Assembly (NCBI GenBank): GCA_951406725.2
Contig: OX597834.1
Span: 6,696,001-6,760,000 of the forward strand
Direction of reading: 5' to 3'
Origin: Octopus vulgaris
Lineage: Eukaryota
Length of the DNA: 64,000 bases
The notes beneath the pieces are model-generated. The model was not told the DNA's origin and searched no databases. It worked only from the letters and a program-made list of their open reading frames with translations. Positions 2,237 through 61,109 of the stretch are shown here, piece by piece (the stretch's first letter is position 1; each line of letters opens with the position of its first letter). A program made the position numbers and the translations under genes.

Positions 2237-2410
2237 GGTGCAGGCATAGCTGTATGATAAGACGTTTGTTTCCCAACCTCACAGTTTTGGGTTCAGTCCC
2301 ACTGCTTGGCACCTTGGGCAAATGTCTTCTATTACAGCTCCTGTAGACTTCTGAGTGGGCTTGGTAGACAGAAACTGAAAGAAGCCCATCGTATCTTTGT
2401 ATGTGTATGT
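2237..2410 (+). mobile_element. SINE family B, 5' half, diverged
   Basis: ggttcagtcccactg...ccttgggcaaatgtcttct...aaactgaaagaagccc, shared with full copies such as 27248-27643. Confidence 0.8.
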
Positions 2411-2465
2411 ATATATATATATGTATATATATATCAAAATAAGCAACAAGGCTATCCAAAGGTAG

Positions 2466-2544
2466 TGTAGTACAATCGTTTCATGCTACTTAAACAATGT
2501 AAGTATTACATCAGTTTTAAAATGTAGAGCACTCTTCAGCCACA
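2466..2544 (-). ncRNA. Type I hammerhead ribozyme, canonical core
   Basis: Minus strand: stem I tgtgg/ctaca; core CTGAAGA; stem II gtgct...agcat with a ~40-nt insert; GAAA; near-palindromic stem III acgattgt; GUA triplet. Confidence 0.75.
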
Positions 2545-2700
2545 TATGGAATTTTTAAAATTAAATTGACATTGTTCATTTTTATACTTATTCACCTCTC
2601 TATCTATATACCTACCCTCTTTGTAATGTTGGCAAATGGAATAAGTATAAAAATGAACATTGTCAATATATGTATGTGTATATATATATATATATATGTG

Positions 2701-3224
2701 TGTAAAAAAATACAAACTGGGACAGGAACGCAAAACATTTAGAAGACAATACAAAAAACACGGACGGGACATTCGGAGCCTTCAATCTTCAGTCAAGAAC
2801 CAGATCATCTTCGCAATTTCAGCTGATTAATCTTGAGATTGCTCCGATCTTGCCAAAGGAAAATCTAAGCCAAGCGCATTAGATTCCTTGGAAGAAAGCC
2901 TCGAATGTATACAAAACAAGGACGGAAAACAGGACGATGTTACACGAATAAAAATACAAAAATACGTAAAAACAATAATGATAATAAGAATAACAACAAA
3001 AACAGGACATCACAGACAAGCGTCTTTTTGACAGGACGAGTAAATTTTTGAGCTGGCGTTACAAAAAGCCTTTAGGGCTAGAGAGAGAAAAAACATTGTG
3101 TCTTGCCGCAACGGCTGCTGGCCACGAAAGGGCTAGCAATTGGTCAGCTAGTCACGTGTGAGAAGAGAGAGGAAAAGAGGGACAGATGAAGAGAGAAAGA
3201 AGGGGAACAAGGAACAAAGGAGGA

Positions 3225-3262
<38 letters not shown>

Positions 3263-3535
3263 CGATCAAAGAGGAGTGCAAAGTGTGAAAGGCAGAGAAA
3301 TGTAGGAGAGGAGGGAGAGAGACAGTGTTATAGAGTCGTACCAAGATAAGAATATGTACTTACATATTAGACCAAAATGGGTACGGACGCCGAGCAATCT
3401 CAAGATTAATCAGCCGAAATTGCAAAGATGATCCGGTTCTTGACTGAAGATTGAAGGCTTCGAATGTCCCGTCTGTGTTTTTTGTATCGTCTTCTAAATG
3501 TTTTGCGCTCCTGTCCCAGTTTGTATTTTTTTACA
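2701..3535. repeat. 144-bp inverted repeat (2701-2844 / 3392-3535), probably Penelope-like terminal sequence
   Basis: The two arms are reverse complements with few mismatches, and both outer ends abut TA-rich microsatellite. Confidence 0.85.
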
Positions 3536-3750
3536 TATACATATATATAGCGACATCCGTACCCCTTTTGGTCTAATATATATATATATACTGATAAAAA
3601 TGGTAAGACAACAAAAGAAAGAAAGAGACCTTGATATTATGTAAATTGAGGAATTTATCTGTAAATGTAATATGTGACAATTATTCGGCACGCTGCCATC
3701 TCTTCAGTTATCTGGCCATCATTTTTCATTTTTCATGGCATTTTTCCGAT

Positions 3751-3822
3751 GGCCGGATAACTGAAAAGATGGCAGCATGGATTTCCACCTCGGCATCTGA
3801 AACTTGGAGTTTTATCATGGCT
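3751..3822 (+). ncRNA. Type I HHR with a G8A core lesion, probably inactive
   Basis: Stem I gataa/ttatc; core CTGAAAA; stem II gatg...catc; GAAA; stem III acttggagt. The inverted partial copy at 3692-3720 keeps CTGAAGA. Confidence 0.65.
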
Positions 3823-3848
3823 ACCGAATAATTGTCACATATTACATT

Positions 3849-3892
<44 letters not shown>

Positions 3893-3908
3893 GGAATAAA
3901 CACATAAA

Positions 3909-3944
3909 TGTCCGACGAACGGGAACATGCAACTCCGAGTAACA
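3909..3944 (+). ncRNA. Decayed minimal HHR
   Basis: tgt CCGACGA acg-ggaa-cat GCAA ctc-c-gag T A aca; topology retained, but GAAA has become GCAA and stem II is mismatched. Confidence 0.45.
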
Positions 3945-4181
3945 GGTTTTGTTGAATTTCTGCTGCTTTTAAATAAAGTATATATATATATATATACACA
4001 TACATATATATATGTATATATATATATTTATATATATATATATAATTTAAAAATAGGATAAAATCTTCATAAGAATTTATCAAGTAGTTAGCATAAAAAA
4101 CCCCATAAGAAAAAAAAAACCACCAATTTTTTCCCTTAAATATCTGTTGATTTTATTCATTCATTATATTTCTTGAATTAT

Positions 4182-4247
4182 GCTTGTACTGAAGAGTAAA
4201 GAGTACAAAATAACGTACTTATTACGAAATCACTGATGATATACAGC
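4182..4247 (+). ncRNA. Type I hammerhead ribozyme, intact
   Basis: Stem I (gc)ttgta/tacag(c); core CTGAAGA 4189-4195; stem II gtaa-a-gagtac[aaaataac]gtactt-a-ttac; GAAA 4226-4229; stem III atca[ctga]tgat; AUA triplet, predicted cleavage after 4241. Confidence 0.88.
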
Positions 4248-4515
4248 TAAATTCTGCTTTTAAATGTCTGGCTTCGAGAGTTTGCATTCGGTGAGATATG
4301 TTTATTTATTTTAGTAGTTTTTACTTTAAGAGCCCCTCATAGCATGTGACATTTATGTGTAATAATGTCCTCTATATAATATAAATATATTCTAATGCCA
4401 AATATGCCGAAAATAGACAAAATAGTCAATAACCATTATAATTATCGGTTGTCAAGCCGATACAAATTTCTACAAATTTTCCATGGGTATGAGTAAGTAT
4501 TTCATTTATGTCTTA

Positions 4516-4586
4516 CGTATTTATCGCTGAGGAGGTGAAAATTCTTATGAATTAACTCTGAAATTGGGACCAATACGGTAATAACG
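4516..4586 (+). ncRNA. Type I hammerhead ribozyme, canonical core
   Basis: Stem I ttatcg/cggtaa; core CTGAGGA 4527-4533; imperfect stem II containing aattc[ttat]gaatt; GAAA 4560-4563; stem III attgg[ga]ccaat; AUA triplet, predicted cleavage after 4575. Confidence 0.8.
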
Positions 4587-5118
4587 GAATTTTCGAGACA
4601 CACATGTATATATATATATATATGCATATTTGTGTGTGTGAGTGCGTGCATGTGTGTGTGTTACAGTACCTTCCTTACCTTAACATTGCATGCTAGTTGT
4701 AAATGTGTGATGCCATCATGCATGCGGTCTCCATAAAAAACATGTCTGACCATGGAACAATATTACCTTGCTTGGAAACAGGTAAGAGTTGGTGACATGA
4801 AGAGCATCCAGCTGTAGAAAAATCTGCCTCAGCAAATTCTGTCCAACCCATGCAGACACAGAAAAGCAGACGTTAAAATGGCGATGTTACAAATTTTAGC
4901 ACAAAGCCAGTAAGTTTTATGATGTGGGTTAGTTGGTACCATCAGACTCCCAGAACTAGATTGGTACTTTATTTTATTGACCTCGAGAAGGACAAAAAAG
5001 CAAAGATGACCTCAACAGGATTTGAACTCAAGACATAAAGAACTAGAACAAATACCACAAGGTATTTTTCTCTGACACAATACTATTTCAGCAAGAAGAA
5101 GAACTACTACTACTACTA

Positions 5119-33149: not shown

Positions 33150-33571
33150 ACCTGGCAGAAACGTTAGCACGCCGGGCGAAAAGTGTAGCCGTATTTCGTC
33201 TGCCGTTACGTTCTAAGTTCAAATTCCCCCGAGGTCGACTTTGCCTTTCATCCCTTCGGGGTCAATAAAGTAAGTACGAGTTATGCACTGGGGTCGATAT
33301 AATCGACTTAATCTATTTGTCTGTCCTTGTTTGTCCCCTTTGTGTTTAGCCCCTGTGGGTAGTAATGAAACAGGTATTTCGTCTGTCTTTATGTTCTCGA
33401 GTTCAAATTCTGCCGAGATTGACTTTGCCTTTCATCCTTCCGGGGTTGATAAATTGAGTACCAGTTATGCACTGGGGTCGATGTAATCGACGTAATCCAT
33501 TTGTCTGTCATTGTTTATCCCCTCTGTGTTTAGCCCCTTGTGGGTAGTAAAGAAATAGGTATTTTGTCTGT
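33150..33571 (+). mobile_element. SINE family A tandem dimer plus the start of a third unit
   Basis: Junctions gaaacag|gtatttcg and gaaatag|gtattttg. Confidence 0.88.
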
Positions 33572-33975
33572 CTTTATTACCCACAAGGGACTAAACCCAG
33601 AGAGGACAAACAAGGACAGACAAACGGATTTAGTCAATTACATCAACCCCAGTGTGTAACTGGTACTTAATTTATCGACCCTGAAAGTATGAAATGCAAA
33701 GTCGACCCTGGCGGAATTTGAACTCAGAACATAATGGCAGACGAAATACCTATTTTTTTTTAACACACAAGGGGCTAAACACAGAGAGGACGAACAAGGA
33801 CAGACAAACGGATTTAGTCGATTACATCAACCGCAGTGCGTAACTGGTACTTAATTTATCGACCCCAAAAGGATGAAAGGCAAAGTCGACTTCAGCGTAA
33901 TTTGAACTCAGAACGTAATGGCATACGAAATACGGCTACACATTTCGCCCGGTGTGCTAACATTTCTGCCAACTC
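33571..33975 (-). mobile_element. SINE family A tandem dimer, tail-to-tail with the previous array
   Basis: Reverse complement of the A units. Confidence 0.88.
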
Positions 33976-43447: not shown

Positions 43448-44521
43448 TCTCAGAGCTGGAGCTTTTCAACAGAGTCCCATAAATTAGTTTTCAAAATATT
43501 TTGGTACATCTCTGCATTCATTCTACCATCTATCACATGTAAATTGCCAGTACCATTTGCAGAGAAACACCCCCACACCATTATGTTGCCACTTCCAAAC
43601 TTTACGGTAGGAATTGTGCTTTTCGGCGAATAGGTGTTACCATCTTTCCTCCAAACATGGCTACGTGAATTTTGTCCAAACAATTCAATTTTCGACTCAT
43701 CTGTCCATATAACATTTTCCCAGAATGTATCAGATTTATCTTTATGTTCGTAAACAAATTTTAAACAGGCATCTCTATTCCTTTTAGTCAACAGTGAAGT
43801 TTTTCTTGGAGCGCGTGACTTCAGTTCATTCCTATGAAGTTCATTGCTGATTGTTCGTAGTGTAACACTAGTCCCTGAAGCTAACAAATCTTCTTGCAAC
43901 TCTTTTCTGGTGATCATTGCATTTTTTTTTCGATTCTTTGCTTCAACTTTTCTTAAAGATCTAGGGGAAATCTTGCATGGTGCACCGGATCTTATTCTGT
44001 TTTCAACAGTTCCCGATTTTTTATATCTTTGAATAAATGAAGATATGGTAGAAAATGGAATACAAAAGGTCTCTGATATTTTCCTGTAACTTTTACCTGC
44101 TTTCCACTGTTCAATAATTAAGTTTTTCACTGAATTTGTGAGTTCTTTACTTTTCGTCATTATTACGATACTACTTTATGTTGTCTCAGTGCTGAATGGA
44201 GTAGCTAGCGTTTTGACACTTAAAAATGACAACTGATAAGATTATTGGAACAAACGAATATGTTCTAGTAAAAAAAAATTACTTTAACAGTATTTTGTGG
44301 CATAGAAAATTATAAATTTATTTTGTACAAATAATTTTTTCACTCCTAAATACTTATAATTGTATATAAATTCCTTAGTTACTATAATTTATTAGTTTCT
44401 TTTGCATATTCTTAGTTTATGCATGTGTATGCAAATATAGTATTGGTATATCATTTATGTTCATTAGAAATTAAATAAATAAATAATTTTGACATGTATG
44501 AATGTTTATTTCCCCCCACTG
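43448..44521 (-). mobile_element. Tc1-like transposon, 5' part (3'-truncated)
   Basis: TA|CAGTGGGGGG terminus at 44521 inside (TA)n; contains the transposase ORF. Confidence 0.9.
43450..44160 (-). pseudogene. Tc1 transposase, uninterrupted 236 aa, lacking the second D and the E
   Basis: Paired-like HTH, RSGAP, PRKTSLL, WTDESKIELFG, TVKFGSGNIMVWGCF; cut off at a SINE boundary. Confidence 0.92.
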
Positions 44522-47134: not shown

Positions 47135-47500
47135 ATGATATTACACTGCATGAATGATGAACAGAAATGAGCAGAGCTGAAGGAATGAAAAAAAATACCT
47201 GGGTATGAGAAGAAGCAGTTGTAGGATGCAAGAGTGATGGCTATAAAAGGTATACGAATAATGTTTACAAGTGATTGAATCTGTGCCAGGAGGAGATTCT
47301 TGTGGATGGATCCAATGGTAGATGGTTAAGAAAGACACAGGCCAGAGGTGATGAGTTACTAGACTCATCCAACCCATGCCAGCAGGAAAAACAGACATAA
47401 GGTGTAGATGATGGGAATGATGGTGGTGCTGCTGGTGGTAGTTGTGATAGTGGTAATACGCTTCTGGCTAGTTTTTATTTTGCTATCAAAAGGGATTACT

Positions 47501-48142
47501 TATTTCTTTACTATCCACAAGAGGCTAAACACAGAGGGGGCAAACAAGGACAGACAAAGGGATTGAGTCGATTATATCGACCCCCAGTGCATAACTGGTA
47601 CTTATTTAATCGACCCCAAAAAGATGAAAGGCAAAGTCAACCTCGGCAGAATTTGAACTCAGAACATAACGGCATACAAAATACCTATTTCTTTACTACC
47701 CACAAGGGGCTAAACACAGAGGGGGCAAACAAGGACAGACAAAGGGATTGAGTCGATTATATCGACCCCCAGTGCATAACTGGTACTTATTTAATTGATC
47801 CCGAAAGGATGAAAGACAATGTCAACCTCAGCGGAATTTGAACTCAGAACGTAGCAGCAGACGAAATACCTATTTCTTTACTACCCACAAGGGGCTAATA
47901 CCTATTTCCATTTCTTTACTATCCTCAAGGGGCTAAACACAGAGGGGACAAACAAGGACAGACAAACAGATTAAGTCGATTATATCGACCCCAGTGCATA
48001 ACTGGTACTTATTTAATCAACCCCGAAAGGATGAAAGGCAAAGTCGACCTTGGCGGAATTTGAACTCAGAACGTAACGGAAGACGAAATGCAGCTAAGCA
48101 TTTTGCCCGGCATGCTAACGTTTCTGCCAGCTCGCCACCTTA
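47501..48142 (-). mobile_element. SINE family A tandem trimer with a 13-bp TSD
   Basis: TSD aaaagggattact at 47488-47500 and 48143-48155; one head and three bodies. Confidence 0.92.
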
Positions 48143-48397: not shown

Positions 48398-48741
48398 TTA
48401 ATAATAATAATAATAATAATAAAAATAATAATAATAATAATTATTATAATAATAATAATAATCAATAATAATAAAAATGATGATGATGATGATGGTGACA
48501 ATAATAATAATAATAATAATTAATAAGATGATGATTAATACATAATAATGATGATGATAATAATAAAATAATAATAATAATAATAATAATAAATAATAAT
48601 AATAATAATAATAGTAATAATAATAATAATAACAATAATAATAAAAATGATGATGATGATGATGGTGACAATAATAATAATAATAATAATCAATAATAAT
48701 GATGATGATGATAATAATAATAATGATGATGATAATAATAA

Positions 48742-48790
<49 letters not shown>

Positions 48791-49006
48791 GTAATAATAA
48801 TAATAATAATGATGATGATAATAATAATAATGATAATAATAATAATAATGATAATAATGATAATAATAATAATGATGATAATAATGATACTGATGATAAT
48901 AATAATAATGATAATAATGATAATAATGATAATAATAATAATAATGATAATAATAATAATAATGATAATAATGATAATAATAATAATGATGATAATAATA
49001 ATAATG

Positions 49007-49037
<31 letters not shown>

Positions 49038-49219
49038 TGATAATAATAATAATGATGATAATAATAATAATGATAATAATGATAATAATAATAATGATGA
49101 TAATAATGATAATGATGATAATAATAATAATGATAATAATGATAATAATGATAATAATAATGATGATAATAATGATAATGATGATGATAATAATAATAAT
49201 AATGATGATAATAATAATG

Positions 49220-49250
<31 letters not shown>

Positions 49251-49960
49251 TGATAATAATAATAATGATGATAATAATAATAATGATGATAATAATAATG
49301 ATGATAATAATAATATATGATAATAATAATAATAATAATAATAATGATGATAATAATAATAATGATGATAATAATAATAATGATAATAATGATAATAATA
49401 ATAATGATGATAATAATAATAATGATGATAATAATAATAATGATAATAATGATAATAATGATAATAATAATGATGATAATAATGATAATGATGATAATAA
49501 TAATAATGATAATAATGATAATAATAATAATGATAATAATAATAATAATGATAATAATGATAATAATAATAATGATGATAATAATAATAATGATAATAAT
49601 GATAATAATGATAATAATAATGATGATGATAATAATGATAATGATGATAATAATAATAATGATAATAATGATAATAATGATAATAATAATGATGATAATA
49701 ATGATAATGATGATAATAATAATAATAATAATGATGATAATAATAATAATAATAATAATGATAATAATAATAATAATAATGATAATAATGATAATAATAA
49801 TAATGATGATAATAATAATAATGATAATAATGATAATAATGATAATAATAATAATGATGTTGATGATGATGATGATAATAATAATAATAATAATAATAAT
49901 GGCAGTAGTAGTAGTAGTAGTTGTAGTAGTAGTAGTAGTATTAGCAATAGCAACAACAAC
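48398..49960. repeat. 1.56-kb (AAT/GAT)n compound microsatellite
   Basis: Direct reading; source of the 438-535 aa low-complexity ORFs. Confidence 0.98.
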
Positions 49961-51230: not shown

Positions 51231-51638
51231 GTGAGCTGGCAGAAATGTTAGCACGCTGGGCAAAATGCGTAGCCGTATTTCATCTATCATTATGTTCTGA
51301 GTTCAAATTCCGCCGAGGTTGACTTTGCCTCTCATCCTTTCGAGGTCGATTAAATAAGTACAAGTTACTGGGGTCGATATAATCGACTTAATCTGTTTGT
51401 CTGTCCTTGTTTGTCCTCTCTGTGTTTAGCCCCTTGTGGGTAGTAAAGAAATAGGTATTTTGTCTGCCGCTACGTCCTGAGTTCAAATTCCGCCGAGGTC
51501 GACTTTGCTTTTCATTCTTTCAGGGTCAATTAAATAAGTAGCAGTTATGCACTGGGGTCAATATAATCGACTTAATCCGTTTATCTGTCCTTGTTTGTCC
51601 CTTCTGTGTTTAGCCCCTTGTGGGTAGTAAAGAAATAG
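51231..51638 (+). mobile_element. SINE family A tandem dimer
   Basis: Junction aagaaatag|gtattttg at ~51455; TSD-like gaaagYagtgagc. Confidence 0.9.
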
Positions 51639-52149: not shown

Positions 52150-52245
52150 GTACCTATTGTGCTGACAGTACTTGAGGATCTAAGAGCTAAAAGCAAGGTA
52201 TTGCATTTTACAGCTTGTTGAAACGCCTTAATTTCGCAAAAAGCT

Positions 52246-53074
52246 ATGCTCAATGGATCAGATGGTAAAACATACATCAGAGATCGCCCAACTGAGGAAT
52301 TCAATCTGAAATGCTTGAAAAAGATGGCGCAAGTGGGTGGTAGGGGTGTGATGGTGTGGACAGCATCTAGTAGCTTTGGTGTTGGCCCTCTAGTTAAATT
52401 TGATGGAAAGTTAAATAGTGTAGGTTATATAAACCTACTAAAGGATAATGTTGTGCCATATTTGACTCACCAAATGCCTCCTGGGGCTATTTATCAGCAG
52501 GACAATAGTCCTGTGCACAAAGCCAAAAAGGGTATGGAATTTTTTGATCACCATAATATTGACATAATCGAATGGCCTTCCCAGAGCCCAGATCTGAATC
52601 CGATCGAGAACTTGTGGAATTACGTTTCCAAAACAGTCCATGCTAAAAAAACCATCTAAAACAATTATTCGATTATATCAATGAAATATGGCAAAACATT
52701 CTCATAGAATTTTGTAGTCACTTAGCGTATTCAATACCGAGGCATTTCTCAGCCGTTATCAAGAATAAGAGCTACAGCACAAAGTACTAATATGTATTTC
52801 GTTCTTGTTGCTCATTTTTGGTACAATCTTAAGCTTTAAATAAAATTATAATGATACGGACTTAAACTAATTTTGCCGGTAAATTTGAAACGTTTATATT
52901 AATTTAGCATTAGAATTCTTCAAGTTGTAAAAAAATAGTTATTGTCTTCATCATTCAAAAGAGAAGTAATTTCTGCATTAGGTGTAAAAGATAGAATTTG
53001 TATGGGGTTAGTAACAAAATATTTTGTAAGAAATAGAACTTTTATCATTGGTCTTAAATTTATTTTCGCCAGTG
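52246..53074 (+). mobile_element. Tc1-like DD34E transposon, 3' half with IR-DR-type terminus
   Basis: GGRGVMVW...YQQDNSPVH...WPSQSPDLNPIENLW (34 aa between D and E), frameshift near 52655; ends cagtg|TA; inner and outer direct repeats at ~52858 and ~53050. Confidence 0.9.
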
Positions 53075-60509: not shown

Positions 60510-61109
60510 ACGGCAAGCTGGCAGAATCGTTAGCACGCCGGGCGAAATGCTTAGCAGTATTTCGTCTGTCGTTACGTTGTGAGTTCAAATTCCGCCGAGG
60601 TCGACTTTGCCTTTCATCCTTTCGAGGTCGATAAATTAAGCACCAGTTGCTTCGTGGGGTCGATACAATCGACTTAATCCGTTTGTCTGTCCTTGTTTGT
60701 CTTCTCTGTGTTTAGCCCCTTGTGGGTAGTAAAGCAATAGGTATTTCGTCTGCTGCTACGTTCTGAGTTCAAATTCCGCCGAGGTCGACTTTGCCTTTCA
60801 TCCTTTCAGGGTCATAAATTAAGTTACCAGTTACGCACTGGGGTCGATATAATCGACTTAATCCATTTGTCTGTCCTTGTTTGTCCTCTCTGTGTTTAGC
60901 CCCTTGTGGGTGGTAAAGAAATAGGTATTTCGTCTGCCGTTACGTTCTGAGTTCAATTTCCGCCGAGGTCGACTTTGCCTTTAATCCTTTCGGGGTCGAT
61001 AAAATAAGTTACCAGTTACACACTGGGGTCGGTGTAATCGACTTAATCCGTTTGTCTGTCCTTGTTTGTCCTCTCTGTGTTTAGCCCCTTGTAGGTAGTA
61101 AAGAAATAG
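60510..61109 (+). mobile_element. SINE family A tandem trimer inside (GAT)n
   Basis: Units start gtatttcg at 60557, 60741 and 60925 (period 184); array ends aaatag at 61109. Confidence 0.93.

Follow-up and report, generated by a model that had tools for sequence, protein, structure and literature searches.

Penelope-like elements (PLEs) are known to carry single, dispersed hammerhead ribozyme motifs (PMC4209133, PMC8557442). As described for metazoan PLE hammerheads in PMC4209133, many families coexist in one genome, most are represented by single motifs of truncated elements, helix III is short and palindromic, and opposite-strand pairs lie 100–700 bp apart; the locus presented here shares these features, although the available parts of that account contain no discussion of a stack of five families. 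PLEs of the Hydra clade, including Hydra-1_Obim, possess a CxCX5C linker, an endonuclease without the CCHH cysteines and a canonical hammerhead near the 3′ end; they use (TA)n targets and show 5′ truncation with an inverted partner (PMC8557442). Animal retrozymes of the non-LTR (long terminal repeat) type lack an open reading frame (ORF) and carry one type I hammerhead per unit in head-to-tail repeats, and they have been proposed to be non-autonomous PLE derivatives (PMC7229834; bioRxiv 10.64898/2026.07.22.740005). Here, we analyzed a 64,000-nt stretch of the Octopus vulgaris genome (assembly GCA_951406725.2, 2.8 Gb in 227 contigs; contig OX597834.1, positions 6,696,001 to 6,760,000 of the forward strand), hereafter the window, which is AT-rich and has many microsatellites. 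Positions 2401–4624 hold six modules within 2.2 kb, each from a different repeat family. With a probability of about 0.85, this cluster represents truncated 3′ ends of six repeat families between (TA)n tracts, likely inserted successively by TA-favouring Penelope-like enzymes.

An initial annotation of this DNA had listed five hammerhead motifs, here labelled M1 (2466–2544, minus strand), M2 (3751–3822), M3 (3909–3944), M4 (4182–4247) and M5 (4516–4586, the last four on the plus strand). All five are present, each in its own dispersed repeat family. The module M6 (2687–3590), between M1 and M2, was absent from that list. The proposal that several hammerhead-bearing PLE families had piled up in a TA microsatellite is supported. 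Its assumption that these families are non-autonomous fits M4 and M5, which are ORF-less, but not M1–M3, since longer copies enter a Hydra-type endonuclease and, for M2 and M3, also a reverse transcriptase (RT). Each module pairs a forward, 5′-truncated 3′ end with an adjacent inverted piece of its own family, an anatomy known for PLE insertions (PMC8557442, PMC4209133). Four of the five type I cleavage sites have a (TA)n tract at a distance of 31–40 nt, but M4 abuts M5 with no tract between them.

The type I core (CUGANGA, GAAA and NUH in type I order) is found in the window copies of M1, M4 and M5, three in number as in the initial annotation, and in the majority of relatives of all five families. 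The cut positions that we re-derived agree with the previously predicted sites 2471/2470 (minus strand), 4241/4242 and 4575/4576. Each module is dispersed, with 1622 (M1), 2928 (M2), 1090 (M3), 3701 (M4) and 2372 (M5) first-look candidates. For each family, 40 candidates were scored and 30 fetched, so the relatives are the closest ones and no random draw; five duplicate loci were excluded, as were rows with less than 60% identity at either core half (3 of 57 for M2, 6 of 47 for M3 and 1 of 31 for M4). Cores were intact in 28/34 relatives of M1, 35/54 of M2, 36/41 of M3, 26/30 of M4 and 24/34 of M5. The stems had been described as sharing no sequence, which holds between the motifs (best local alignments of 7–12 nt), whereas the M2 and M3 families have an identical palindromic helix III.

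Two window copies deviate from their families at core positions. M2 has an A at G8 (position 3766), where 48 of 54 relatives have G, and M3 has a private C at A13 (3930), where all 41 relatives have A, together with a shortened stem I; the U4C change of M3 is a family trait. Changes at G8 and A13 abolish hammerhead activity, and on this basis the window copies of M2 and M3 are predicted to be dead. The C3-G8 pair has been described to covary as U3-A8 (PMC4209133). Among the M4 relatives, position N7 is G in 7, C in 8, U in 13 and A in 2 cases, and H17 is A in 15, C in 14 and U in a single case but never G, while at each remaining core position no more than one of the 30 deviates. Such a pattern is what selection on the hammerhead in the source elements would be expected to leave. 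Among the five type I families, pairs were counted for M4: 95.6% of the cells are paired, compared with 24–44% in slid controls, two pairs are changed on both sides, and 10–14 of 500 shuffles reach three of the five measures.

Judged from their sequences, M1, M2 and M3 are the 5′-truncated ends of three protein-coding Hydra-clade families. Translations show an endonuclease frame upstream in 9 of 20 longer copies of M3, with RT motifs in L306; in 2 of 20 longer copies of M1 (L307, L308), where it is collinear with the hammerhead end and no RT was recovered; and in two of 15 for M2 (L314, L323), with RT in L322 and L323. The M1- and M3-linked endonucleases share 34% identity. The CxCX5C linker and the lack of a CCHH motif, both typical of the Hydra clade, were seen in copies of M3 (L305/L306), M1 (L307/L308) and M2 (L323). 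L306 has DNT where the Hydra RT motif DKT is expected, and the RWK region was not recovered; all ORF copies seen for the three families are broken. Two published Hydra entries share helix III and the sequence at the cleavage site with the M3 family, and the M2-linked RT stretches resemble Hydra-1_Obim by eye (PMC8557442). M1–M3 represent three further families, with hammerheads that differ from the one listed for Hydra-1_Obim in that source.

In the window, the M1 module occupies 2435–2593 on the minus strand, with a (TA)n-like tract (2401–2434) at its 3′ end. Its hammerhead has an intact core, a G-U at 10.1-11.1, a 2-bp palindromic helix III and a loop II that is 10 nt shorter than in the family owing to a deletion. 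It is joined by an inverted M1-family tail fragment (2590–2666, plus), a PLE-type 5′ inversion that is on the opposite strand in most relatives. The M2 module (3729–3850, plus) is preceded by an inverted M2 tail and the inverted 5′ half of an M2 hammerhead containing CUGAAGA without GAAA (3591–3720, minus). A (TA)19 tract (3852–3890) separates it from the M3 module (3891–3978, plus), which is followed by another (TA)n tract (3979–4044) before M4. Beside a different M1 copy (L084:1620-2210), we noticed a Neptune-like RT fragment, unrecognised by Pfam, joined directly to the Hydra-type M1 3′ end. This RT was considered as the partner of M1 and rejected, since M1 is missing from all 19 relatives and all 14 downstream extensions, and the RT family ends in its own decayed hammerhead-like motif; the junction is a chimera, possibly from a template switch between PLE clades. 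The Neptune-like PLE family itself (L171-L204; 1102 first-look candidates) has an RT, a CxxCxxC linker and a GIY-YIG domain with an internal CxxC, and its decayed motif stands at the end of the element, before (TA)n.

M4 and M5 are of a different kind, namely retrozyme-like, ORF-less units of approximately 0.5 kb. We inspected 20 relatives of each, picked by the upstream part of the unit, and in neither set did any locus reach a shared upstream ORF (0/20 and 0/20). Instead, the sequence upstream of the units repeats their own end, giving direct repeats with a period of 487–502 nt in 12 of 20 M4 loci and of 450–515 nt in 17 of 20 M5 loci. Two whole hammerheads one unit apart were found at three M5 loci (L058, L362, L366), while the M4 loci contain 1.x-mers only. 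The absence of an ORF matches the non-LTR retrozymes introduced above, and the single type I hammerhead per unit and the direct repetition resemble theirs. The units of 465–500 nt exceed the RNAs of 170–400 nt reported in PMC7229834 but fall inside the range of 51–972 bp given in bioRxiv 10.64898/2026.07.22.740005. Unlike retrozymes, the M4 and M5 copies are mostly monomers or 1.x-mers with PLE-type inversions.

The M4 module (4145–4390, plus), part of a unit of ~497 nt, includes a type I hammerhead with an extended stem I (4175–4254) and is preceded by an inverted M4-family tail fragment (4045–4143, minus). An inverted M5-family 3′ fragment (4389–4480, minus) abuts the M4 end. The M5 module (4477–4593, plus), part of a unit of ~465 nt, has an intact hammerhead core, and a private change at 4536 weakens its stem II; a (TA)n tract (4606–4624) closes the cluster. 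Elsewhere in the genome, near 20.00 Mb of contig C1 of the same assembly (G000), identical type I hammerheads occur at a spacing of 353–359 nt, five in plus-strand and two in minus-strand orientation (L205:2307-4513), an array that we read as a young retrozyme-like tandem with an inversion. Upstream of one M5 copy (L036) lies an inverted-repeat element with short (TTAGGG)n runs.

The sixth module, M6, extends the comparison to type-SGC hammerheads such as HRIMA-1, which share with it the order of cleavage site, GAAA and CUGANGA (S-G-C), pseudoknotted stems I and III and a short link between stems I and II (PMC10085705). Read from 5′ to 3′, the M6 motif has one strand of stem III, which ends in AUC, followed by one strand of stem I, then GAAA together with the second stem III strand, and finally the second stem I strand with CUGANGA after it. 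The family has 4007 first-look candidates, and 5 of 19 relatives show direct terminal repeats with a period of 695–748 nt. More distant relatives vary at N7 and H17 and have changes in both strands of stems I and III: across 26 distinct rows, stem III is 98.5% paired with two pairs changed on both sides, and stem I is 94.9% paired with three such pairs. None of 500 shuffles reaches the observed whole-structure pairing or covariation, which is support rather than proof because related sequences can exceed shuffles without structure.

The difference from type SGC concerns stem II, whose 5′ strand directly follows CUGANGA in the published type (PMC10085705). In M6, 0–1 stem II pairs are possible at that place; instead, the strand before GAAA forms a helix of 6 bp, G-C being the closing pair, with a strand positioned upstream, 20 nt from the predicted cut site. 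This upstream stem II is 91.5% paired, with two pairs changed on both sides, and fits the rows better than an earlier model that used a GGC five bases past CUGAAGA, which was dropped as weaker, with its closing pair unpaired in 5 of 26 rows. The core would thus be split after A9, with extra helices. One of these, a helix between the upstream arm and the strand before stem I, is 86% paired and has one position unpaired in 11 of 26 rows; as it is the helix meant to rejoin A9 to G10.1, its moderate support counts against reading M6 as a hammerhead.

In the window, the M6 module (2687–3391, minus) is an ORF-less unit of ~700 nt, accompanied by an inverted, 5′-truncated copy with a tail fragment (3392–3590, plus; the copy itself 3392–3549), giving 158-nt arms with 94% complementarity. 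The left copy of the motif (2773–2856, minus) has its predicted site at 2837/2836, GAAA at 2820–2817 and CUGAAGA at 2792–2786; in the right copy (3392–3463, plus), the corresponding positions are 3399/3400, 3416–3419 and 3444–3450. Both copies are without the upstream stem II strand, the left one owing to a 6-nt deletion and the right one to truncation. The M6 family likely carries a rearranged hammerhead that is damaged in both copies at this locus.

Searching 720 kb of unselected DNA with a descriptor of the split layout gave 5 matches, whereas 20 shuffles gave none; at least one of the matching families (L263) is unrelated in sequence. Motifs of S-G-C order without sequence relation to M6 were noted at L263:1509 (minus), L282:383 (plus), L327:1112 (minus), L041:383 (minus) and L308:1643 (minus); in four of them (L282, L327, L041 and L308), the strand before GAAA could also pair over 3–4 bp just past CUGANGA, as in published type SGC. 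According to the available parts of PMC10085705, none of its SGC RNAs was found in genomes of known organisms. A second comparison is with Naiads, described as PLEs without canonical hammerheads, some of which are tagged 'HHR_half_core' (PMC8557442). By eye, the strand order and pairings of M6 recur, with no sequence likeness, at the 3′ ends given for Naiad_Obim and Naiad_Ovul in that paper's supplement. This link is one of topology only, and against it, a Naiad ORF was found upstream of none of the 19 M6 relatives and none of the 5 unrelated motif loci.

The evidence leans toward the view that the hammerhead of the M6 family is active and has an architecture not described before, S-G-C in order, with the backbone open between A9 and G10.1 and stem II supplied from upstream; this hammerhead would exist in several unrelated families and thousands of copies and would be the ribozyme reported missing in Naiads. 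In that case, the locus would combine PLE cargo of three ribozyme-bearing classes, namely Hydra ends, retrozyme-like units with type I motifs, and a unit with a scrambled hammerhead. If the M6 family cleaves, this animal genome would harbour a new natural connectivity of the hammerhead core. The published account of Naiads as elements that spread without a hammerhead would then be overturned, which would bear on the role of the ribozyme in Penelope-like retrotransposition. In a literature search that covered few subscription papers, we found no scrambled hammerhead placed in Naiads or other animal repeats.

A likely route by which such modules accumulate is as follows. The GIY-YIG endonuclease would nick (TA)n, and the RT would copy the RNA from its 3′ end, with copying usually stopping early. 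The hammerhead would be the part most often left behind because it is near the 3′ end, and since an insertion leaves TA on both sides, the site would remain open to further hits. For the source elements, the likely use of the hammerheads is to release element RNA from longer transcripts, and those of M4–M6 probably yield unit-length or circular RNA. At the locus itself they would be passengers that have been decaying since insertion, which the private core mutations in M2 and M3 fit.

The distribution of the families is in line with (TA)n targeting. A (TA)4 occurs within 300 nt downstream in 36/40 copies of M1, 56/58 of M2, 43/47 of M3, 27/31 of M4 and 33/37 of M5 (87–97%; 90–97% for M1–M3), compared with 29% of random windows. 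We further took an unselected sample of 59 stretches of 10 kb at fixed round coordinates (590 kb), in which 12 places with a total of 19 hammerheads matched a relaxed type I descriptor, whereas 5 shuffles gave no match. Extrapolation suggests ~90,000 hammerhead motifs in the genome, with a wide error. The six window families account for 15 insertions in this sample, and most of its hammerheads belong to other families. Another of the six families lay within ~1.5 kb at 23 of 159 anchored loci, while 10.2 were expected, which corresponds to ~2.3-fold clumping. The cluster far exceeds its surroundings: its 2.2 kb contain 6 modules, the 130 kb of flanking sequence contain 4, every one of them M6, and the rest of the window has none. 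The four flanking M6 insertions (L370, L371, L264) lie within 70 kb upstream, and none of M1–M6 occurs in 60 kb downstream. The locus is a real hotspot, the dense tail of (TA)n targeting.

Several observations weigh against successive, independent insertion of PLE families. No anchored locus among the 159 has more than one other family. If placement were uniform, a genome would be expected to contain 0.05 five-family and 0.0006 six-family clusters, and with average clumping these values rise to ~1.2 and ~0.03. A stronger local hotspot or the larger pool of other families must be invoked; as the six families were picked for their presence at this locus and most of the sampled hammerheads come from others, the pool is larger and the true expectation higher. 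Furthermore, no autonomous partner came to light for M4, M5 or M6 (PLE ORF in 0/20, 0/20 and 0/19 relatives), the Hydra RT and endonuclease fragments were not recognised by Pfam, so that the clade call relies on motifs identified by eye and on no tree, and the covariation of M4 is modest, amounting to 6 cells, a value that 11 of 500 shuffles reach.

Alternatively, the cluster, or part of it, might have moved as a composite element, or one family might insert preferentially into the ends of another. M4 and M5 abut without a TA tract, and M2 and M3 occur together in 7 of 14 mixed loci. The pairing of M2 with M3 is, on the other hand, expected, since they are the commonest of M1–M5 in the unselected sample (3 insertions each of 9), and no relative of any module has neighbouring modules in matching order and with matching junctions. 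We regard a composite origin as unlikely and prefer successive insertion into (TA)n.

A function at the locus is a somewhat weaker contender still. The initial annotation had envisaged a site at which any read-through transcript on either strand would cleave itself; a selected two-strand trap of this kind could act as an insulator or terminator. The extreme density of the cluster and the intact type I cores on both strands would suit such a trap, as would the compensatory pairs in stems I and II of the window copy of M4. The same compensatory states occur elsewhere, however (3 of 31 rows each), inactivating changes affect both M6 copies and two of the five type I cores, and a Pfam search of 54 of the 113 candidate unique window frames yielded a transposase as its only hit and no host exon. 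By eye, the long frames in the 130-kb flanks resemble fragments of LINEs (long interspersed nuclear elements) and transposons. Contigs from runs guessed to be RNA were mostly other repeat copies, carrying no end or strand information for the locus.

The predicted folds likewise argue against cleavage of every read-through transcript. For M4, the hammerhead is the local minimum-energy fold and lies 2.4–4.8 kcal/mol above the best fold in longer contexts, whereas the hammerhead fold of M5 is 5–9 and that of M1 6–9 kcal/mol above the best. On the minus strand, M1 is the sole type I core, with its 2-bp helix III and no second copy nearby. Motifs with a short helix III are believed to depend on dimerization, and in vitro no cleavage could be detected for single minimal PLE hammerheads (PMC4209133). 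Unlike those, M4 and M5 have a helix III of 4–5 bp and could act as monomers. M4 is the best candidate for monomeric cleavage according to these models, and a cut at M4 in plus-strand RNA is plausible. If the plus strand were transcribed, cleavage would be probable at M4 and perhaps weak at M5, while M2 and M3 are predicted to be dead; M1, alone on the minus strand, is predicted to cleave poorly without a dimer partner. With two cores broken, a lone M1 on one strand and poor folding of M1 and M5, general self-cleavage on both strands is not supported, and a selected trap appears very improbable compared with passengers delivered by insertion.

The idea that some or all motifs are chance look-alikes in AT-rich repeat DNA could draw on the lack of an Rfam match in the window at gathering thresholds, on single-strand folding z-scores (−1.5 to +0.4) that do not separate the motifs from shuffles, and on the failure of M2 and M3 to match descriptors, but it is hardly credible: M1, M4 and M5 are the only matches of the relaxed type I descriptor in the 64 kb, and it finds nothing in 2000 dinucleotide shuffles of 2401–4650 or in the 590-kb shuffles, which refutes it for these three, and M2 and M3, recognisable via their families only, are vindicated by their relatives, while the families keep the core, only N7 and H17 varying freely (M4, M5). 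A strict version of the descriptor finds M1 and M4 only.

Taken individually, the five listed motifs add members to kinds already known, and their pile-up is unusually dense but ordinary; novelty resides in the rearranged hammerhead-like motif of the M6 family, inside the coordinates of the cluster. In the literature search mentioned above, we found no octopus hammerheads beyond those of PMC8557442, although the supplements of bioRxiv 10.64898/2026.07.22.740005 may list more families. The word ribozyme is absent from the main text of the 2026 repeat annotation of Octopus vulgaris (PMC13282606). The five motifs show that this genome probably contains tens of thousands of hammerheads. Ranging from intact to dead, they also form a ready panel for asking whether such motifs cut host pre-mRNA.

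Other repeats of the window lie outside the cluster. Tc1/mariner-type transposase fragments (Pfam HTH_SB, HTH_Tnp_Tc3_2 and DDE_3) are located at 43453–44175 (minus) and 52222–52656 (plus). Short tandem arrays of one ~184-bp repeat recur at 33191–33933, 47497–48089, 51297–51638 and 60557–61109, and a (TAA)n tract of 1.5 kb extends from 48399 to 49900.

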